DNA of 64,000 nt from Candidatus Latescibacterota bacterium. GTDB lineage: Bacteria > Latescibacterota > UBA2968 > GCA-2709665. Numbering within the stretch: the first letter of the stretch is position 1; every line of letters starts with the position of its first letter. The stretch lies in the NCBI GenBank assembly GCA_965116875.1, contig OZ220733.1, positions 3,392,001 to 3,456,000 on the forward strand, given 5' to 3'. The translations under genes were made by a program, and so were the position numbers. The notes below the pieces were generated by a model, which was not told the origin of the DNA, did no database searches, and was given only the letters and a program-made list of their open reading frames with translations. Below are positions 1-51,012 of this stretch, one piece after another.

Positions 1-791
1 GCCAGCGCATCTGCGTTCTTGAAGCGCGCCACATCCTGCAGTTCCAGGAGGATCTCCATGGCAGACAAGCATCCCACGCCCGGGATCGACGTCAGGATCG
101 CCACCCGATCCCGATACGTGTCTGTTTGCGCAAGCTCCCACAGCATTTTCGTCTGGCGCCCCACCAGTTCACACAGATCATCGTATTGTTCCAGCATGTT
201 CTCGAAGCTTTCCTGCGCACACGGCTCCCCCAGGTCCACACCACGCAGTGCGGTCACGAACTTGTCAGACCACGTCCCTCTGGATTCTTCGTGCACATAC
301 AAACCCATATACCGCAGTTCGGCCTTGATCCGTAGTTGTACACGCACCCGATCCTTGATGAACTGCCGGCGGCGACGACTCACTTGGCGGTGGCACCGCT
401 CTTCATGCGTCGGCACATAGATCGATGCCAGCAGGTCCGTCCTCAGATAATCCGCCAGCTTGAAGCTGTCGATGGGATCCGTCTTGACCCGATTCCCACT
501 CTGGCTCGGGATCAGGCTCGGCGGCGTCACCGAAGCAGACACACCCATATCGACAAGAAAATCATATAACCAGAAACCGAAATAACCGGCTTCATACACC
601 GCAAAGATCTCTTTCGCTTCGCCATAACGACTCAACACCTTATCGATCGCCTCTGCTGTGCCTGCGATGCGATTGGAGAACAGTCGCAACCCATCCTCGT
701 TGAGAATCGTCACGTGCCACTGCTTGAGATGCATGTCGATGCCCACGAAAAGATCCTTGCCATCCCACGCTTCAACGGTATACCTTGCCAT
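1..791 (-). CDS. IS110 transposase/recombinase, 5' part (runs off window)
   Basis: Same reading frame as 23870-24940; ATG at 791 behind AAGGAGG. Confidence 0.9.
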   Translation of the reverse strand, partial: MARYTVEAWDGKDLFVGIDMHLKQWHVTILNEDGLRLFSNRIAGTAEAIDKVLSRYGEAKEIFAVYEAGYFGFWLYDFLVDMGVSASVTPPSLIPSQSGNRVKTDPIDSFKLADYLRTDLLASIYVPTHEERCHRQVSRRRRQFIKDRVRVQLRIKAELRYMGLYVHEESRGTWSDKFVTALRGVDLGEPCAQESFENMLEQYDDLCELVGRQTKMLWELAQTDTYRDRVAILTSIPGVGCLSAMEILLELQDVARFKNADAL

Positions 792-878
792 CACGAGCCT
801 CCTTGTGAAAGTGTTTGTTACGGGCAAAGGCAAAGTATACTCTCACAAGCTGAGGCTCAACTCATTTTAACATAGTGA
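1..878 (-). mobile_element. IS110-family (IS1111-type) element copy 1, truncated by window start
   Basis: 1-880 matches 24150-25029 except at about 5 positions; subterminal IR TTTTAACATAGT at 865-876, then GA and CT core at 879-880. Confidence 0.93.
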
Positions 879-20236: not shown

Positions 20237-20411
20237 GAAGCTGTTTTAAAATTACCGGTGAGCTCCCGAGCGCGAGCGAAAAAGTGTCGGTCAAGGCGGG
20301 AAAATCCGCCCATATTTGTCTATACGGGTGGGTTTGACCAACGCCGACCGGCGCTTTTGCAGCCGCGCGAAGACCGCTGGGAATTTTAAGACAGCTTCGG
20401 AGGTCTTTTCA

Positions 20412-23297
20412 ATGAAATATGTTCTGCGGTTTCCGGTTCTGTTTTGCCTCGTCCTGTTCGGCGCCTGTGCCGCACCGCAAAAGGCGGCCCCGCCGGAGCC
20501 TGTTGCGCCGCCTCCCCCGCCGAAACTGCCGGTCGATCCGAATCTGACGCGTGGCAGGCTTCCCAACGGCATCCGGTATATCATCCGGGAGAACCAGCGG
20601 CCGGAGAACCGCGCCGAGTTGCGGCTGGTGGTGAACGCGGGTTCGATACTGGAAGACGAGGACCAGCAGGGCCTGGCTCATTTCGTGGAACATATGGCGT
20701 TCAACGGGACCCGGAATTTCCCGAAGCTGGACCTGGTGAATTACCTGGAATCGATCGGCATGCGGTTCGGGCCGGACCTGAACGCGTACACCAGTTTCGA
20801 CGAAACCGTGTACATGCTCCAGGTGCCCACGGACAGCGCGCTGATTGTGACACAGGCGTTTCAGATTCTGGAGGACTGGGCGTCGGGCATCCTGTTTGAG
20901 GCAGAGGAGATCGACAAGGAGCGAGGGGTGGTGATCGAGGAGTGGCGTCTGGGCCGGGGCGCGGGCGCACGGCTGCGGGACAAGCAGTTCCCGATCCTGC
21001 TCAAGGGCTCCCGCTATGCGGAAAGGCTGCCCATCGGGAAGAAGGCCGTGCTGGATACCTTCAGGCACGAGGCGGCGAAGCGGTTCTATCGCGAGTGGTA
21101 CCGCCCGGACCTGATGTCCGTCATCGCCGTGGGCGATTTTGAAACGGCATGGATCGAAGGGCTGATTCAGACGCATTTCGGGCGGATTCCCGCGGCGCGC
21201 CAACCCAGAAAGCGGACGCTGTATCCGCTGCCGGGGCACGAGGAGACCCTGTTCGCCATCGCCACCGATCCGGAGGCGACCAGAACGAACGTTTCCATCT
21301 ATTACAAGCAACCGGTTCGGGAACAGGACTCTGCCGGGGCCTACCGCCAGAACATCGTCGAGTCTCTGTACAACAGGATGCTGAGCGCCAGGTTGCGGGA
21401 AATGACAAAAAAACCCGACGCGCCGTTTCTGTTCGCGTACTCCAGCCAGGGTCGATTCATCCGGACAAGCGAGTTTTACCTGCAGGGCGCCGTCGTCAGA
21501 GAGGGTGGGATTCTGCGGGGGCTGGAGGCCGTACTCACGGAAGCCAGAAGGGTGCGCCTGCACGGGTTTACGCAGTCGGAACTGGAGCGTGAGAAAACCG
21601 AGGCGCTCCGCGGGATGGAGCGCGCTTACGCGGAGCGGGACAAGGTCCGTTCCCGCAGATATGCGTCGAAGTATATCCGGCATTTTCTATCGGGCGAGCC
21701 GATTCCGGGGATCGAGCATGAATACACGATGTTCCAGGAGATGGTCCCGGAAATCCGTCTGACCGAGGTGAACCGCCTCGCCGGCGAGTGGATCACCGGG
21801 CATAACCGCGTCGTTCTGGTCGACGGTCCGGAGAAGCAGGGCGTGACAATGCCCACCGAAGAGGAACTCACGGGGGTCATCGCGCGCGTCGACGAGATGG
21901 AGGTCGAGCCCTACGAAGACGCGGCCCTGGCCCGGCCGCTCGTCGAGACGCCGCCAACGCCCGGCGAAATCGTCGCGGAGAAGAAGATCGCCGAACTGGA
22001 CGTGACCGAATGGACGCTGTCGAACGGTGTGCGCGTCGTGCTGAAGCCGACTGATTTCAAAAACGACGAGGTGCTGTTTTCGGCATTCAGCCCGGGCGGA
22101 CTCGGGCTGGTTTCAGACGAGGACTATCTTGCAGGCGTTACCGCGTCTGCCGTCGTTCAGGAAGGGGGCCTGGGGAGCTTCAACGCGATCGGACTGGAGA
22201 AGAAGCTGGCAGGAAAGGTGGTGCGCGTATCACCCTGGATCCAGGGACTTCGCGAAGGGGTCAGGGGCAGCGCCTCACTGAAGGATCTGGAGACGATGTT
22301 TCAACTGGTCTACCTGACGTTCACTGCGCCGCGCAAGGATCCCGACGCGTTTCTGGCCTACGTGCAGCGCATCCGCGGATCGCTGGAAAACCGCAGCGCC
22401 AGCCCCGCGACAGCCTACGGCGATACGATTCAGGTAACGATGGCGCAGTACCATCACCGTGCGCGGGTCTGGTCGGAAGCGCTTCTGGAAGAAATGAATC
22501 TCGATCGTTCAATCGCGATCTACCGGGACCGGTTCGCCGACGCGAGCGATTTCACGTTCTTCTTCGTCGGCAACATCGAGCTGGAAGGCATCCGACCGCT
22601 GGTAAAGACGTATCTGGGCGGGCTGCCTGCGACGAGGCGAAACGAGTCGTGGCGCGACGTGGGTTTGCGGCCTCCCCGGGGAATTATTGAAAAAACCATC
22701 CACAGGGGCCTGGAACCCAAGAGCAGCAATCGGATCGTCTTCACCGGGCCCTTCGAATGGAGCCGCAGGAACCGTTACAACCTGGCGTCCACAATCGATG
22801 TACTCCGAATCAGGCTTCGTGAGGTTCTGAGAGAGGAAATGGGCGGGACCTATGGCGTGGGCGTGGGCGTGTCCACCTCCCGCTATCCCGAGCAGCGGTA
22901 CCGTATCCGGATCAGCTTCGGCTGCGCGCCCGACAGCGTCGAACAACTCACCCGGGCGGTTTTCGCCCAGATCGACAGTCTCAAGCAGTTCGGCGCATCG
23001 GATACGAATATCGAGAAGGTCCAGGAGGCGGACCGCCGCGCCCGGGAAGCTGCGTTGAAGGAGAACGGGTTCTGGCTGAGATCCCTTTCGTCCAACTACT
23101 GGCATGGCCTGGACCCCGTCGACATTCTGGCTTACGACGAACTGGTGAACGGACTCACGTCAGACGTTGTTCGGGACGCCGCGCGGAAGCATTTCAATAT
23201 GGAGAACTATGCGCGCTTCGTACTCTACCCGGAAACGACGGAGGACGGACCTCGGGACGGGGACACGGGTCCCCCGGACACCACCGACGGGCCCTGA
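20412..23297 (+). CDS. M16 zinc peptidase (PqqL-like), probable lipoprotein
   Basis: Inverted zinc motif HFVEH, NAYTSFDETVY; lipobox-like FGAC. Confidence 0.92.
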   Translation: MKYVLRFPVLFCLVLFGACAAPQKAAPPEPVAPPPPPKLPVDPNLTRGRLPNGIRYIIRENQRPENRAELRLVVNAGSILEDEDQQGLAHFVEHMAFNGTRNFPKLDLVNYLESIGMRFGPDLNAYTSFDETVYMLQVPTDSALIVTQAFQILEDWASGILFEAEEIDKERGVVIEEWRLGRGAGARLRDKQFPILLKGSRYAERLPIGKKAVLDTFRHEAAKRFYREWYRPDLMSVIAVGDFETAWIEGLIQTHFGRIPAARQPRKRTLYPLPGHEETLFAIATDPEATRTNVSIYYKQPVREQDSAGAYRQNIVESLYNRMLSARLREMTKKPDAPFLFAYSSQGRFIRTSEFYLQGAVVREGGILRGLEAVLTEARRVRLHGFTQSELEREKTEALRGMERAYAERDKVRSRRYASKYIRHFLSGEPIPGIEHEYTMFQEMVPEIRLTEVNRLAGEWITGHNRVVLVDGPEKQGVTMPTEEELTGVIARVDEMEVEPYEDAALARPLVETPPTPGEIVAEKKIAELDVTEWTLSNGVRVVLKPTDFKNDEVLFSAFSPGGLGLVSDEDYLAGVTASAVVQEGGLGSFNAIGLEKKLAGKVVRVSPWIQGLREGVRGSASLKDLETMFQLVYLTFTAPRKDPDAFLAYVQRIRGSLENRSASPATAYGDTIQVTMAQYHHRARVWSEALLEEMNLDRSIAIYRDRFADASDFTFFFVGNIELEGIRPLVKTYLGGLPATRRNESWRDVGLRPPRGIIEKTIHRGLEPKSSNRIVFTGPFEWSRRNRYNLASTIDVLRIRLREVLREEMGGTYGVGVGVSTSRYPEQRYRIRISFGCAPDSVEQLTRAVFAQIDSLKQFGASDTNIEKVQEADRRAREAALKENGFWLRSLSSNYWHGLDPVDILAYDELVNGLTSDVVRDAARKHFNMENYARFVLYPETTEDGPRDGDTGPPDTTDGP

Positions 23298-23330
23298 CCG
23301 CCTTCGGGACCTCTACCCCGGCCCCACAGA

Positions 23331-23449
23331 AGCGGGTAGACGTTAGACGGGAGAGATTACCTGCCTTGTGAGGATTTCCTTCGCGCCGAAGGCAAGGAGG
23401 GAAAACATCCCGGGCAAGGATTTCTTCTACCGTCTCGCCTCTACCGTCT
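23331..23449. repeat. Left part of an intergenic inverted-repeat element interrupted by the IS (continues at 25028-25056)
   Basis: Aligns by eye with 50820-50983 (GCGGGTAGACG..AGACG...GGCAAG...GGCAA...TTCTTCTACCGTCT). Confidence 0.7.
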
Positions 23450-23744
23450 ACTATGTTAAAAGTCAAGAGAAAACGACCATATGTTGGCCTCAGATGCTGG
23501 GGTTACTCTACCATTATGCGTACCTATGCGACGCGTTCATTCTGACACGCTCGTCGAGCGTGTCAGAATGAACGAAATAAACGTCATTGAGGCCTGAATG
23601 GTTCCCTGCCGCACGACAGCAGTAGGGACCAGGCGTACGGTGTTCTCTGTTGGATGGCCTCAGATGCTGGGGCAACGCTACCAATCTACTATTCGTAGTC
23701 GCCTGGTGCAGGCGCTGACATGTCATTTATCCGGAGCCGTGCGA

Positions 23745-23817
23745 TAGGGGACGGGGCGTGCAAACTTCACTTACGTAGTACCCTGTGGGTCTACAAGACG
23801 GTAGGCGCCGTCCCCTG
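23745..23817 (-). ncRNA. Predicted bridge/seek RNA target-binding loop in the IS 3' end
   Basis: Outer stem 23745-58/23806-17, inner hairpin 23775-94; loop strand 23795-804 reads CUACCGUCUU on minus, identical to target CTACCGTCTT; transcript boundaries unknown. Confidence 0.7.
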
Positions 23818-23869
23818 TACTCCGCGATCAAAAGCGGTGCGTGCGCAGGCATCTGTTGCGACCGTGTGT

Positions 23870-24940
23870 TCACCCGGCGATGAGGCCCAGCTGATAGGGC
23901 TCTCCATTCAGCAGGATCCTGCGCATACGGCCCACCAGGATTCTGGCAACACCGACGATGGCGCGTTTGCCACCGGCACGCACCTTCAAGTGTTCGTATT
24001 TTTCCTGCATCGCGGGATCTTTCTCGATCAGGCGCCAGGCCGCCTGGGTAAGTAACGCACGTACAATGGGCTTTCCCTGGCGGGTGATGCGCCCGTGCCT
24101 CACGTGCTCGCCCGACGAGTGCTGGCCGGGCGTCAGCCCCACGTAGGCCGCCAGCGCATCTGCGTTCTTGAAGCGCGCCACATCCTGCAGTTCCAGGAGG
24201 ATCTCCATGGCAGACAAGCATCCCACGCCCGGGATCGACGTCAGGATCGCCACCCGATCCCGATACGTGTCTGTTTGCGCAAGCTCCCACAGCATTTTCG
24301 TCTGGCGCCCCACCAGTTCACACAGATCATCGTATTGTTCCAGCATGTTCTCGAAGCTTTCCTGCGCACACGGCTCCCCCAGGTCCACACCACGCAGTGC
24401 GGTCACGAACTTGTCAGACCACGTCCCTCTGGATTCTTCGTGCACATACAAACCCATATACCGCAGTTCGGCCTTGATCCGTAGTTGTACACGCACCCGA
24501 TCCTTGATGAACTGCCGGCGGCGACGACTCACCTGGCGGTGGCACCGCTCTTCATGCGTCGGCACATAGATCGATGTCAGAAGGCCTGTCCTCAGATAAT
24601 CCGCCAGCTTGAAGCTGTCGATGGGATCCGTCTTGACCCGATTCCCACTCTGGCTCGGGATCAGGCTCGGCGGCGTCACCGAAGCAGACACACCCATATC
24701 GACAAGAAAATCATATAACCAGAAACCGAAATAACCGGCTTCATACACCGCAAAGATCTCTTTCGCTTCGCCATAACGACTCAACACCTTATCGATCGCC
24801 TCTGCTGTGCCTGCGATGCGATTGGAGAACAGTCGCAACCCATCCTCGTTGAGAATCGTCACGTGCCACTGCTTGAGATGCATGTCGATGCCCACGAAAA
24901 GATCCTTGCCATCCCACGCTTCAACGGTATACCTTGCCAT
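23870..24940 (-). CDS. IS110 DEDD recombinase/transposase (356 aa)
   Basis: FVGIDMH, YEAG, KTDPIDS (RuvC-like DEDD), SIPGVG, YVGLTP.QHSSG (Tnp serine), RITRQG; AAGGAGG RBS. Confidence 0.96.
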   Translation of the reverse strand: MARYTVEAWDGKDLFVGIDMHLKQWHVTILNEDGLRLFSNRIAGTAEAIDKVLSRYGEAKEIFAVYEAGYFGFWLYDFLVDMGVSASVTPPSLIPSQSGNRVKTDPIDSFKLADYLRTGLLTSIYVPTHEERCHRQVSRRRRQFIKDRVRVQLRIKAELRYMGLYVHEESRGTWSDKFVTALRGVDLGEPCAQESFENMLEQYDDLCELVGRQTKMLWELAQTDTYRDRVAILTSIPGVGCLSAMEILLELQDVARFKNADALAAYVGLTPGQHSSGEHVRHGRITRQGKPIVRALLTQAAWRLIEKDPAMQEKYEHLKVRAGGKRAIVGVARILVGRMRRILLNGEPYQLGLIAG

Positions 24941-25175
24941 CACGAGCCTCCTTGTGAAAGTGTTTGTTACGGGCAAAGGCAAAGTATACTCTCACAAGCT
25001 GAGGCTCAACTCATTTTAACATAGTGACTTCCCTCTTATCTCTACCCGCATTCCGGCTTTTTTGGCCAATATGTTTTTTTTCAATTGAGGTCTAATTGCA
25101 GCGAAGTCCCGGCGTGTCCAGATGCCGGGACTCGTCTTTGATGTGTGAACGCGATCGCTGACGGAGGGGCAATCG

Positions 25176-26210
25176 ATGGCGAGATTCGCACGGGCCGGGG
25201 ACGTAAAGACAGGGGTGGTCGGATACGGCGCGGCCTTCGATATGGGTCCGCGCCACCTGTCGGATATGCGGAAGGCGGGGATGACGCCCTGCGCGGTCGC
25301 GGAGACGGATCCGGAACGGCTGGACGCGGCGGGTCAGGATTTCCCCGGTATCGAATTGTATCCGACCGTCGGGGAGATGTTGAATACGTCGGCCGTGAAT
25401 CTGGTGGTGTTGATTACGCCGCACAATACCCACGCGGATCTGGCCCTGCAGTGCCTCCGTGGGGGACGCCACGTCATCAGCGAAAAGCCTATCGCCATTA
25501 CGACAGAAGAATGCGACGCCATGATTCGCGAAGCCGCTTCGCGGGACCTGCTGGTCACCGCGTACCATAACCGGCATTGGGACGGCTGTGTCCTGGAAGC
25601 GTTGAAGCATCTTCACGAGGAGAGGGCGATCGGCGAGATCTACCGCATCGACGCCCGGATCGGCGGATACGGTCATCCGGGGGACTGGTGGCGGAGCAGC
25701 CGGTCGATTTCCGGGGGCGTCATGTACGATTGGGGGGTACACCTGCTGGAGTACGGGCTCCAGATTATCCCCTCGGATATCGTCGAGGTCTCCGGGTTCG
25801 CAAAGACGGGCTTCTGGGCCGGCGAAACGCCGTGGAAAGACGATACGAACGAAGACGTGGCGTGCGCGGTGGTCCGGTTCGAAAACGGCGCGTGGCTGAG
25901 CCTGACGGTTTCCTCGCTCGAGAGCAATCCCAGACAGGGGCAACTGGAGATCTCGGGTACGGAAGGCAGTTATGTCTTCGACGGACGCAGCTACGAATTG
26001 ATCCGGCAGCAGGGAGACGATAAGGTGGTGACGAAGGGCGCCAACATGCCCAGTCGCTGGGAGGCGTTCTACGACAATATCGCCCGGCACCTGAGTGAAG
26101 ATGAAACCCTGGTGATTACGCCCGAATGGGCCAGGCGCCCGATCCACGTACTGGACCTCGCCGCGAAGAGCGCGAAACAGGGACAGGCGATGAAGGCCCG
26201 GTATAGATAG
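25176..26210 (+). CDS. Gfo/Idh/MocA oxidoreductase
   Basis: GVVGYG, TPHNTH, EKP, HNRHWD, GG.MYDWGVH. Confidence 0.9.
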   Translation: MARFARAGDVKTGVVGYGAAFDMGPRHLSDMRKAGMTPCAVAETDPERLDAAGQDFPGIELYPTVGEMLNTSAVNLVVLITPHNTHADLALQCLRGGRHVISEKPIAITTEECDAMIREAASRDLLVTAYHNRHWDGCVLEALKHLHEERAIGEIYRIDARIGGYGHPGDWWRSSRSISGGVMYDWGVHLLEYGLQIIPSDIVEVSGFAKTGFWAGETPWKDDTNEDVACAVVRFENGAWLSLTVSSLESNPRQGQLEISGTEGSYVFDGRSYELIRQQGDDKVVTKGANMPSRWEAFYDNIARHLSEDETLVITPEWARRPIHVLDLAAKSAKQGQAMKARYR

Positions 26211-50819: not shown

Positions 50820-51012
50820 GCGGGTAGACGTGAGACGTGAGACGGAAGAGGACCACACCCCGCCACACCACCTGGTGAGAGGTGAGACGGGAGAGGGTAG
50901 AGATCGCATGCCGTGTAAGGTTTTTTTTATCATGCCGCAGGCAAGTAGGAGGAATATATCGGCAATGGCTTCTTCTACCGTCTTCCCTCTACCGTCTCCC
51001 CGCATTTTGGCA
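50820..51012. repeat. Intact intergenic inverted-repeat element with empty IS110 target CTACCGT-CT-TCCCTCT (50975-50990)
   Basis: Left arm with (TG)AGACG repeats, right arm CTACCGTCT repeats; matches the flanks of both IS copies. Confidence 0.75.

Follow-up and report, generated by a model that had tools for sequence, protein, structure and literature searches.

Background

Elements of the IS110 and IS1111 groups move by means of recombinases whose guidance by bridge RNAs or seekRNAs was published in 2024 (PMC11187229 and PMC11208160, in the parts covered here). An insertion sequence in the genome of a Candidatus Latescibacterota bacterium raises the question of whether the DNA into which such an element has inserted can be read from an RNA that the element itself encodes and, if it can, how much of the reaction (target, core and donor junction) is spelled out there. 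We have addressed this question in a 64,000-nucleotide stretch of the genome, referred to here as the window, in the whole genome (one contig, 5.45 Mb) and in 84 homologous loci from elsewhere.

We are highly confident that the locus is an intact IS1111 element and that its DEDD recombinase would be guided by a two-loop RNA encoded in the 420 nt that follow the gene, in the gene's own orientation. According to the mechanism that we propose, the first or target loop (approximately 23816-23747) would pair through its 5' strand, CUACCGU-CU, with one DNA strand of CTACCGT-CT and through its 3' strand, AGUGA-AG, with the other DNA strand of CT-TCCCT. The second or donor loop (approximately 23735-23681) would read the joined ends of the excised circle, with UGAC as its 5' strand and AUAGU-AG as its 3' strand, and recombination at the shared CT/AG core would insert the circle into a dispersed intergenic repeat. 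The existence of an IS1111-type element with a bispecific guide RNA had been proposed from an inspection of the window; covariation, both within the genome and across some 70 homologues, supports this proposal.

Results and discussion

The element and its recombinase

Within the 370-aa open reading frame that holds the recombinase, Pfam detects PF01548 (DEDD_Tnp_IS110) at residues 30-173 (E 1.5e-19) and PF02371 (Transposase_20) at residues 245-330 (E 5.9e-27), and the NCBIfam model NF033542, 'IS110 family RNA-guided transposase', scores 218 bits against a cut-off of 140. An alignment of six homologues has D19, E67, D105, D108 and S276 invariant; these five align with the catalytic DEDD residues and the SG serine, in ISCro4 the positions of GID, E, KTDxxD and ESG. 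The nearest solved structures are those of the ISCro4 (E 4e-11) and IS621 (E 1.1e-10) recombinases, the similarity lying mainly in the C-terminal domain.

The marks that separate IS1111-type from IS110-type elements are, in the part of PMC11187229 covered here, the protein motif GL-P----S(t)G, a long downstream region and subterminal repeats. The recombinase has GLTPGQHSSG, which fits the motif; the non-coding parts of the element amount to 420 nt downstream of the gene (23869-23450) as against 87 nt upstream (25027-24941); and the subterminal repeats, at 12 nt, fall inside the range of 7-17 bp given for IS1111 subterminal inverted repeats in the covered part of PMC11208160. Counted from its ATG, the protein is slightly long, with 356 aa compared with the 330-350 quoted for the IS1111 group. 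Assignment of the element to the IS1111 branch of the IS110 family is thus supported by motif, subterminal repeats and long downstream region.

The best relatives of the recombinase have 54% protein identity in genome contigs (8 loci), 59% in 168 genomes of the phylum and 64% in metagenomes, the last figure being taken from the best 80 of 418 matches. Among the plasmids of PLSDB nothing exceeds approximately 41% identity. The element is present in sponge and coral-reef metagenome runs and absent from all 14 of the other genomes of the genus that were searched.

On the plus strand, the left junction reads CTACCGT-CT and then the element start ACTATGT (23441-23465, ...TTCTACCGTCTCGCCTCTACCGT-CT/ACTATGTTAAAAGTC..., where '/' is the element boundary), and at the right junction the element end CATAGTGA is followed by CT-TCCCTCT (25014-25040, ...TTTTAACATAGTGA/CT-TCCCTCTTATC...). 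The original prediction held that removal of the element leaves CTACCGT-CT-TCCCTCT, and precisely this site was found unoccupied elsewhere in the window (Table 1), its 14-mer CTACCGTCTTCCCT being empty four times in the genome. The homologues have the same kind of ends. Their recombinase-proximal end is AG/T[ACGT]ACTATG in nearly every locus in which it was found, AG preceding the left end in nearly all of those listed and a single left flank ending in AAT (L081); their distal end is CATAG[N]AG/ in nearly every case found, and two depart from this by one base. The genome contains six full copies of the element, with identities of 100, 99, 99, 99, 95 and 89%, and the recombinase frame is open in all six.

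When the ends are joined through one core they give TTGACT-N17-TATGTT. We infer that this arrangement would serve as a promoter across the junction of the circle; it resembles the junction promoters reported for the family, Pjunc with its -35 and -10 halves reportedly being that of ISEc11. TTGACT is found at the matching place in 30 of 51 distinct distal ends of the homologues, and TATGTT or TATGAT in 22 of 23 distinct proximal ends.

An extra module makes the non-coding region approximately 170 nt longer than in most relatives, and between donor guide and element end there are 238 nt, where most homologues have 43-71 nt. The 29-nt direct repeats of the module are 90% alike and 170 nt apart, the first of them contains the strand that follows the donor guide, and the module occurs in all six copies. 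The upstream neighbour of the element encodes a 993-aa M16 (insulinase-type) peptidase (20316-23297, plus strand; Peptidase_M16 and M16_C), and the element lies about 150 nt past its stop codon.

Table 1. Positions, in the window, of the element and of the features discussed in the text (strand '.', no strand assigned)
Feature	Position	Strand	Basis or remark
IS1111-type insertion sequence	23450..25027	- (by recombinase)	1,578 bp without core copies; six genome copies share ends
DEDD recombinase/transposase, 356 aa	23870..24940	-	ATG at 24940; AAGGAGG before it
Core dinucleotide CT (AG on recombinase strand), left copy	23448..23449	.	CT at both junctions in 6/6 copies
Core dinucleotide CT, right copy	25028..25029	.	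Junction reading; CT in all six copies
Subterminal inverted repeat ACTATGTTAAAA	23450..23461	.	12 nt, 100% complementary to 25014-25025
Subterminal inverted repeat, partner arm	25014..25025	.	2-nt terminal extension GA follows
TTGACT, -35 half of predicted circle-junction promoter	23461..23466	-	Read directly; putative function
TATGTT, -10 half of predicted circle-junction promoter	25018..25023	-	Putative function
Target-binding loop module (outer stem, two guide strands, inner hairpin)	23747..23816	-	Fold and family covariation
5' target guide CUACCGU-CU	23796..23804	-	9/9 with left flank and core
Inner hairpin of target loop	23775..23794	-	Fold; family column 62:95 is GC 49 / AU 17
3' target guide AAGUGA (23772-67), core AG (23766-65), UU (23764-63, handshake position)	23763..23772	-	
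Donor guide UGAC	23722..23725	-	Complementary to core G and first three bases (TCA) of recombinase-proximal end
Inner hairpin of donor loop	23694..23720	-	Family columns 154-161 with 176-184; 5/8 pairs compensatory
Donor guide AUAGU-AG (23692-86) and AU (23685-84, handshake position)	23684..23692	-	
Extra module, 29-nt direct repeats (23485-513, 23655-683) around 20-bp perfect palindrome (23534-74)	23485..23683	.	Repeat search
Second element copy, recombinase-proximal part, cut by window start	1..878	-	Same right junction, CATAGTGA/CT-TCCCTCT
Unoccupied perfect target CTACCGT-CT-TCCCTCT	50975..50990	+	Exact match in window

The target-binding loop and its sites

Folding of the minus strand (23830-23735) reproduces the layout that had been predicted, an internal loop with an outer stem and an inner hairpin, at the expected places. 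The outer stem pairs 23815-23805 with 23758-23747 (GGGGACGG.GC with GC.CCGUCCCC); a repeat search gives its arms as 23746-57/23805-16, 92% complementary. Between stem and hairpin lie the 5' loop strand CUACCGUCUU (23804-23795) and the 3' loop strand GUAAGUGAAGUUUGCA (23774-23759).

The 5' strand includes CUACCGUCU, which is identical to the plus-strand left flank and core, and the guide, being of the same sense as these, would pair with the other DNA strand. A match of ten bases out of ten had been counted for this side of the loop. The count is correct; its tenth base, U 23795, turns out to be a constant spacer that ignores the target, since it is fixed in the nearest relatives (L020, L026, L033 and L034) whatever their flank. 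For the 3' side, the match of 6/8 (AAGUGAAG against CTTCCCTC) was again rightly counted, and what has to be redrawn is the extent of the guide: in the family this is five nucleotides plus AG, by which measure AGUGA-AG matches the right flank at 4/5, plus the core, with one nucleotide more here than in the family guide.

As a fold, the target loop (73-96 nt) is not significant when taken alone, with z = -0.97 and 31 of 200 shuffles folding as well, and the value for the whole 421-nt region, z = -5.59, owes much to the 20-bp palindrome. A search of 23300-25200 against Rfam 15 at E up to 1 gave no relevant family; the sole match, to an lncRNA at 20.3 bits against a cut-off of 60, was set aside as chance. 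With an ordinary fold and no match in Rfam, the evidence for the RNA is comparative and not thermodynamic.

Each of the two site types that the element occupies belongs to a dispersed intergenic repeat. In the first repeat, heptamer-like units (CT[ACT]CC[GC]T...) are strung into an array (CTACCGT CTTCCCT CTACCGT CTCCCCG...); it is seen in the window at 23300-23449, 50930-51010 and 11249, and of its sequences CTACCGTCT occurs 159 times and CTCCCGTCT 245 times in the genome. The second repeat is longer and conserved (...GAGCG.AGCGAAGAATCTCCCGTCTTCTCG...). Unoccupied exact 14-mers in the genome number four for the first type and seven for the second, and 50 and 28, respectively, when one mismatch is allowed. 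The six matches of CTACCGTCT in the window, where 0.14 would be expected, follow from the target being a dispersed repeat, so that this enrichment is by itself no proof for the RNA.

The fact that the target is a repeat with so many copies in the genome, together with a loop whose fold is not significant alone, could be put forward in favour of a quite different reading, namely that the match between loop and flank is due to chance and that the protein alone picks the target. Covariation between guide and flank, first among the homologues and then within the genome, decides this question.

Covariation of structure and target guides in the family

Ten of the 84 homologous loci end within 120 nt of the gene, and the other 74 have at least 190 nt downstream of it. 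The RNA is carried by 72 of these 74, in 70 cases recognised by a sequence motif (66 distinct) and in two more by a covariance model; the two loci without it are truncated copies, one (L091) in the gene and the other (L080) at the first stem. With the covariance model, the matches in the genome are the six elements only, and no free-standing copy of the RNA was found either in the genome at E up to 0.01 (a first look had scored 150 of 545 candidates) or over the window.

The structure was examined in a 71-row MAFFT alignment of related RNAs. RNAalifold returned from these 71 rows only the outer stem of the target loop, in which 9 of 11 pairs show compensatory changes. The other helices, at the foot of the inner hairpin and in the hairpin of the donor loop, were added manually on the strength of column statistics. 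These hand-entered helices lean on the analyst's choice, and it is the slide control that argues for them: 90.8% of cells are paired, a share that drops to 77.1% after shuffling of columns and to 37-51% if partners are shifted by 1-3 columns. Over the 71 related RNAs, compensatory change is seen in 16 of 22 stem pairs. Two G.U pairs are invariant (column 48:111 in 71/71 and column 154:184 in 70/70), and since these would be C.A mismatches on the other strand, the RNA is placed on the recombinase strand. The register of the outer stem in the present element differs from that of the family model, as its mismatch marks indicate.

The 5' guide of each RNA was scored against the seven bases past the distal end of its own element, read as their reverse complement. 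A perfect 7/7 was obtained in 18 of 56 cases and the mean match was 5.75, compared with 3.53 for mismatched pairs, a difference reached in none of 5000 permutations; the values at positions 1-7 are too high, as the choice of offset was based on these positions. The match extends over seven bases, perhaps eight, and the complement of the core is CU in 40/56. For the 3' guide, the five bases before the invariant AG were compared with the five bases before the proximal end: 33 of 52 agree at 5/5, with a mean of 4.33 against 1.55 (0/5000 permutations), and the match by position runs 0.98, 0.96, 0.85, 0.83 and 0.71 before it falls to chance level. The tests took in 53 distinct 5' guides and 30 distinct 3' guides.

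Covariation had been named in advance as one of the tests on which the claim that the loop reads its own insertion site might fall. The stems covary, both sides of the loop track their own flanks with none of 5000 permutations doing as well, and the guide changes seen within the genome (below) agree with the approximately 70 homologues, so that the claim is supported. A match that arose by chance, with the protein alone choosing the target, accounts for neither set of changes, and we give that reading practically no weight beside guidance by the loop.

Two of the homologous loci showed peculiarities of their own. In L087, a metagenomic locus, the 3' half of the donor loop and the sequence following it recur in part at approximately 2200-2290, some 70 nt past the end of the element, which suggests a remnant or a MITE-like piece. 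A long non-coding region is found also in L033, which at 64% is the closest of the metagenomic relatives; the insert there (approximately 1500-1640) forms an imperfect palindrome and contains the motif GTCATTCTGAGC...GCGAAGAATC, which resembles the second target repeat of the Latescibacterota genome.

The donor-binding loop

The target loop is followed in the family by a conserved CYCGGAU, a hairpin and CGAAUAG[N]AG, and in the present element this second loop covers approximately 23735-23681. The variable base of AUAG[N]AG is identical to the base at the distal end of the element in 60 of 60 loci (G 26, C 21, U/T 13). The strand that corresponds to UGAC is UUAC in most homologues and GUCA or UAAC in others, and the base at its second position follows that at the second position of the proximal end (A:U 40, G:C 3, C:G 2, T:A 1) in 46 of the 48 loci tallied by script, the exceptions being L020 and L026. 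The pair of the element itself, UGAC/TCAC, was missed by the pattern used in the script and was read by eye.

A tentative donor guide, CTACTAT/GTAGTC, formed part of the original prediction. Its first half (CTACTAT, 23686-92, AUAGUAG in the RNA) is the strand that follows the distal end in 60/60 loci; its second half (GTAGTC, 23695-700) belongs to the 3' strand of the hairpin and had to be given up. Read as RNA, the latter is GACUAC (23700-23695), which aligns with the conserved hairpin strand CCAC and does not track the element ends.

These comparisons show, at the level of sequence, the anatomy of the RNA, its stems and a change in each of four guide strands with the DNA that the strand would read. 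They bear directly on the possibility that the first loop alone guides, as a short seekRNA of approximately 80-100 nt, and that the protein reads the element ends by way of the 12-bp subterminal repeats. Long subterminal repeats are indeed a feature of IS1111-type elements, and in the part of PMC11187229 covered here the RNAs recovered together with four IS1111 transposases have their length peaks at 82-96 nt, and the matches described in them are to the target only. Such a division of labour leaves without explanation the identity of the variable base with the element end in every locus, the tracking of the other end by the UGAC-type strand (with its two exceptions) and the tracking of the first flank base by the base after the donor guide, described below; nor can RNA folding explain the donor matches, which are same-sense identities and not RNA-RNA pairs. 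We consider guidance by the first loop alone to be very unlikely and retain the two-loop RNA as the preferred reading.

Bases at the handshake positions

After strand exchange in IS621, the two bases that follow RTG and RDG pair with the non-cognate DNA and thereby act as handshake guides (PMC11208158, in the part covered). In the present family, 25 of 36 distinct cases have after the donor guide a base identical to the one with which the target flank begins (0/10000 permutations), and the second base after the guide shows no tracking (11/36). At the other position, after the core of the target loop, 35 of 53 cases have U, which matches the T found invariably at the element end. Fifteen of the 18 cases with another base have the next base of the element's own target, an agreement that holds in 21/53 overall and in 0/10000 permutations. 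The element at 23450-25027 follows the IS621 handshake rule at both places, with U at the one and A at the other, the base after its donor guide and its flank base both being A.

Across the family, the base after the target-loop core is bimodal, and this may bear on the balance between insertion and excision. As regards precedent, in the covered part of the literature that names both the handshake and IS1111, the latter appears only in passing or in the references.

Guide and site changes within the genome

The six copies in the genome fall on two types of site. Three of them, including those at 23450-25027 and at the start of the window, occupy CTACCGT-CT-TCCCTCT and have the guide CUACCGU, and three sit in CTCCCGT-CT-TCTCGCT or CTCCCGT-CT-TCTGGCT. 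The copies with 95% and 89% identity occupy this second type of site and have the 5' strand CUCCCGUCU (CUCCCGU-CU), in which a single A to C substitution is the change that the site needs.

The 3' guides of these two copies have changed as well. In the 89% copy, AAG has become CGA, giving CGAUGA-AG with six bases before AG against the family norm of five; if the U is skipped, the resulting CGAGA-AG is fully complementary to CT-TCTCG, where the two remaining members of the second group are inserted, and matches the site of the 89% copy itself at 4/5. Three homologues with a guide of 6 nt (L089, L090 and L098) lend no support to a skipped U, for which the 89% copy is the one example. In the 95% copy, GA has become UG, and the guide fits neither site; the same change is present in contigs of two other runs, which makes it real and not a slip of assembly.

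The remaining copy of the second group, with 99% identity, has the second type of site and the first type of guide. Against its own site it has one mismatch in the 5' guide and 3/5 or 2/5 in the 3' guide, and the same site fits the RNA of the 89% copy at 9/9 and 5/5. The RNA of one guide allele may thus work in trans on an element with the other allele. Perfect targets of the element's own RNA, with TCACT or TCCTT as right arm, are found nowhere in the genome, so that sites matching at 4/5 are the best on offer.

At 1774062-1777971 of the genome, outside the window, two copies of the element that differ in guide type share an orientation and are separated by 750 bp. The pair occupies two units of the second repeat, with an empty unit between them and four more units within 17 kb.

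The right-arm guide may tolerate, or even use, a skipped nucleotide. Taken jointly, a pair of guide alleles reprogrammed for two repeat families, guidance in trans, tolerance of a skipped nucleotide and tuning through the handshake base would form a reading that we offer as tentative and consider on balance unlikely.

Transcripts and present activity

In one RNA library (the metatranscriptome run X20), a single 531-nt contig covers 24504-25034, the 5' part of the gene, at a depth of 3.3, and the RNA region has no cover, which counts neither for nor against its expression. By analogy with IS621, ISEc11 and their relatives, we infer that the RNA is produced, that the recombinase binds it and depends on it, and that the circle forms.

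The element might on the other hand be a fossil, its guides a record of past insertions and its copies now immobile. Contigs of four runs contain neither circle junctions nor empty-site joints, though contigs cannot show rare circles; no other genome of the genus examined has the element; and the 3' guide of the 95% copy fits no site. Loss of mobility is harder to reconcile with four copies that are 99-100% identical over 1,579 bases, with open recombinase frames in all six, and with the persistence of perfect empty targets of both types. On this evidence we judge a fossil improbable, if less so than guidance by the first loop alone, and an intact, guided element remains the reading that we prefer.

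Comparison with known systems

The IS1111 elements with seekRNAs, ISEc11, ISPa11, ISKpn4 and ISPst6, are, in the covered part of PMC11187229, like the present element in having a long non-coding region downstream of the transposase gene, subterminal inverted repeats and the protein motif GL-P----SG, in the position of the top-strand guide 5' of the bottom-strand guide relative to the gene, and in having a repeated sequence as target. The present element differs from them in the length of its protein, as given above, and in the extra 170-nt module of its non-coding region; its recombinase has at most 64% identity to the relatives found in the genome, phylum and metagenome collections searched.

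The bridge RNA of IS621 is similar in having two internal loops with two guides each, both of which include the core (PMC11208160, in the part covered), and the two bases after the 3' guides behave here in a handshake-like manner, as do those of IS621 in the covered part of PMC11208158, U matching the donor and A the target. When the core is written CT, as on the plus strand, the layout is that of IS621 in the covered part of PMC11208160, with an LTG-like strand 5' and an RTG-like strand 3'. In contrast to IS621 as described there, the RNA lies downstream and not upstream of the gene, and the right-arm guide has 5 nt in place of 4; the core, moreover, reads AG relative to the gene here, and similarity between the proteins is confined to the C-terminal domain. 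The guide order of IS1111 elements is called 'reversed' in the part of PMC11187229 covered, which probably reflects the opposite orientation of the gene with respect to the core.

ISPpu9, with its MITE-borne sRNA, shares with the present element recombination at AG, a REP-like repeat as target and extra material downstream of the transposase (PMC12288879, in the part covered). Unlike that system, the Latescibacterota genome contains no free-standing copy of either the RNA or the extra module.

Conclusions

The recombinase and guide had been put forward as a new pair. The pair does belong to an undescribed member of the IS1111-type RNA-guided recombinases; the mechanism had already been published in 2024 (PMC11187229, PMC11208160), so that the element is new only as an undescribed example. 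It is accompanied by a sizeable clade of such recombinases, which may stand in the supplementary tables of the 2024 papers (PMC11208160, PMC11187229). The picture of how IS1111-type elements work is unchanged, and no new mechanism is called for.

What the locus provides is a readable pair of recombinase and guide from a little-sampled lineage, for which four guides, the core, the donor junction and an empty target are predictable from sequence. Around it stands a clade of at least 70 related elements that use one code, 7 nt and CU, 5 nt and AG, and AUAG[N]AG, which makes the clade useful to those who mine genomes for bridge recombinases and offers a natural example of retargeting by point mutation. 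If the joint reading of guide alleles and handshake bases were true, the handshake base of the target loop would represent a natural tuning of insertion and excision, outside the IS110 group in which the handshake was defined.
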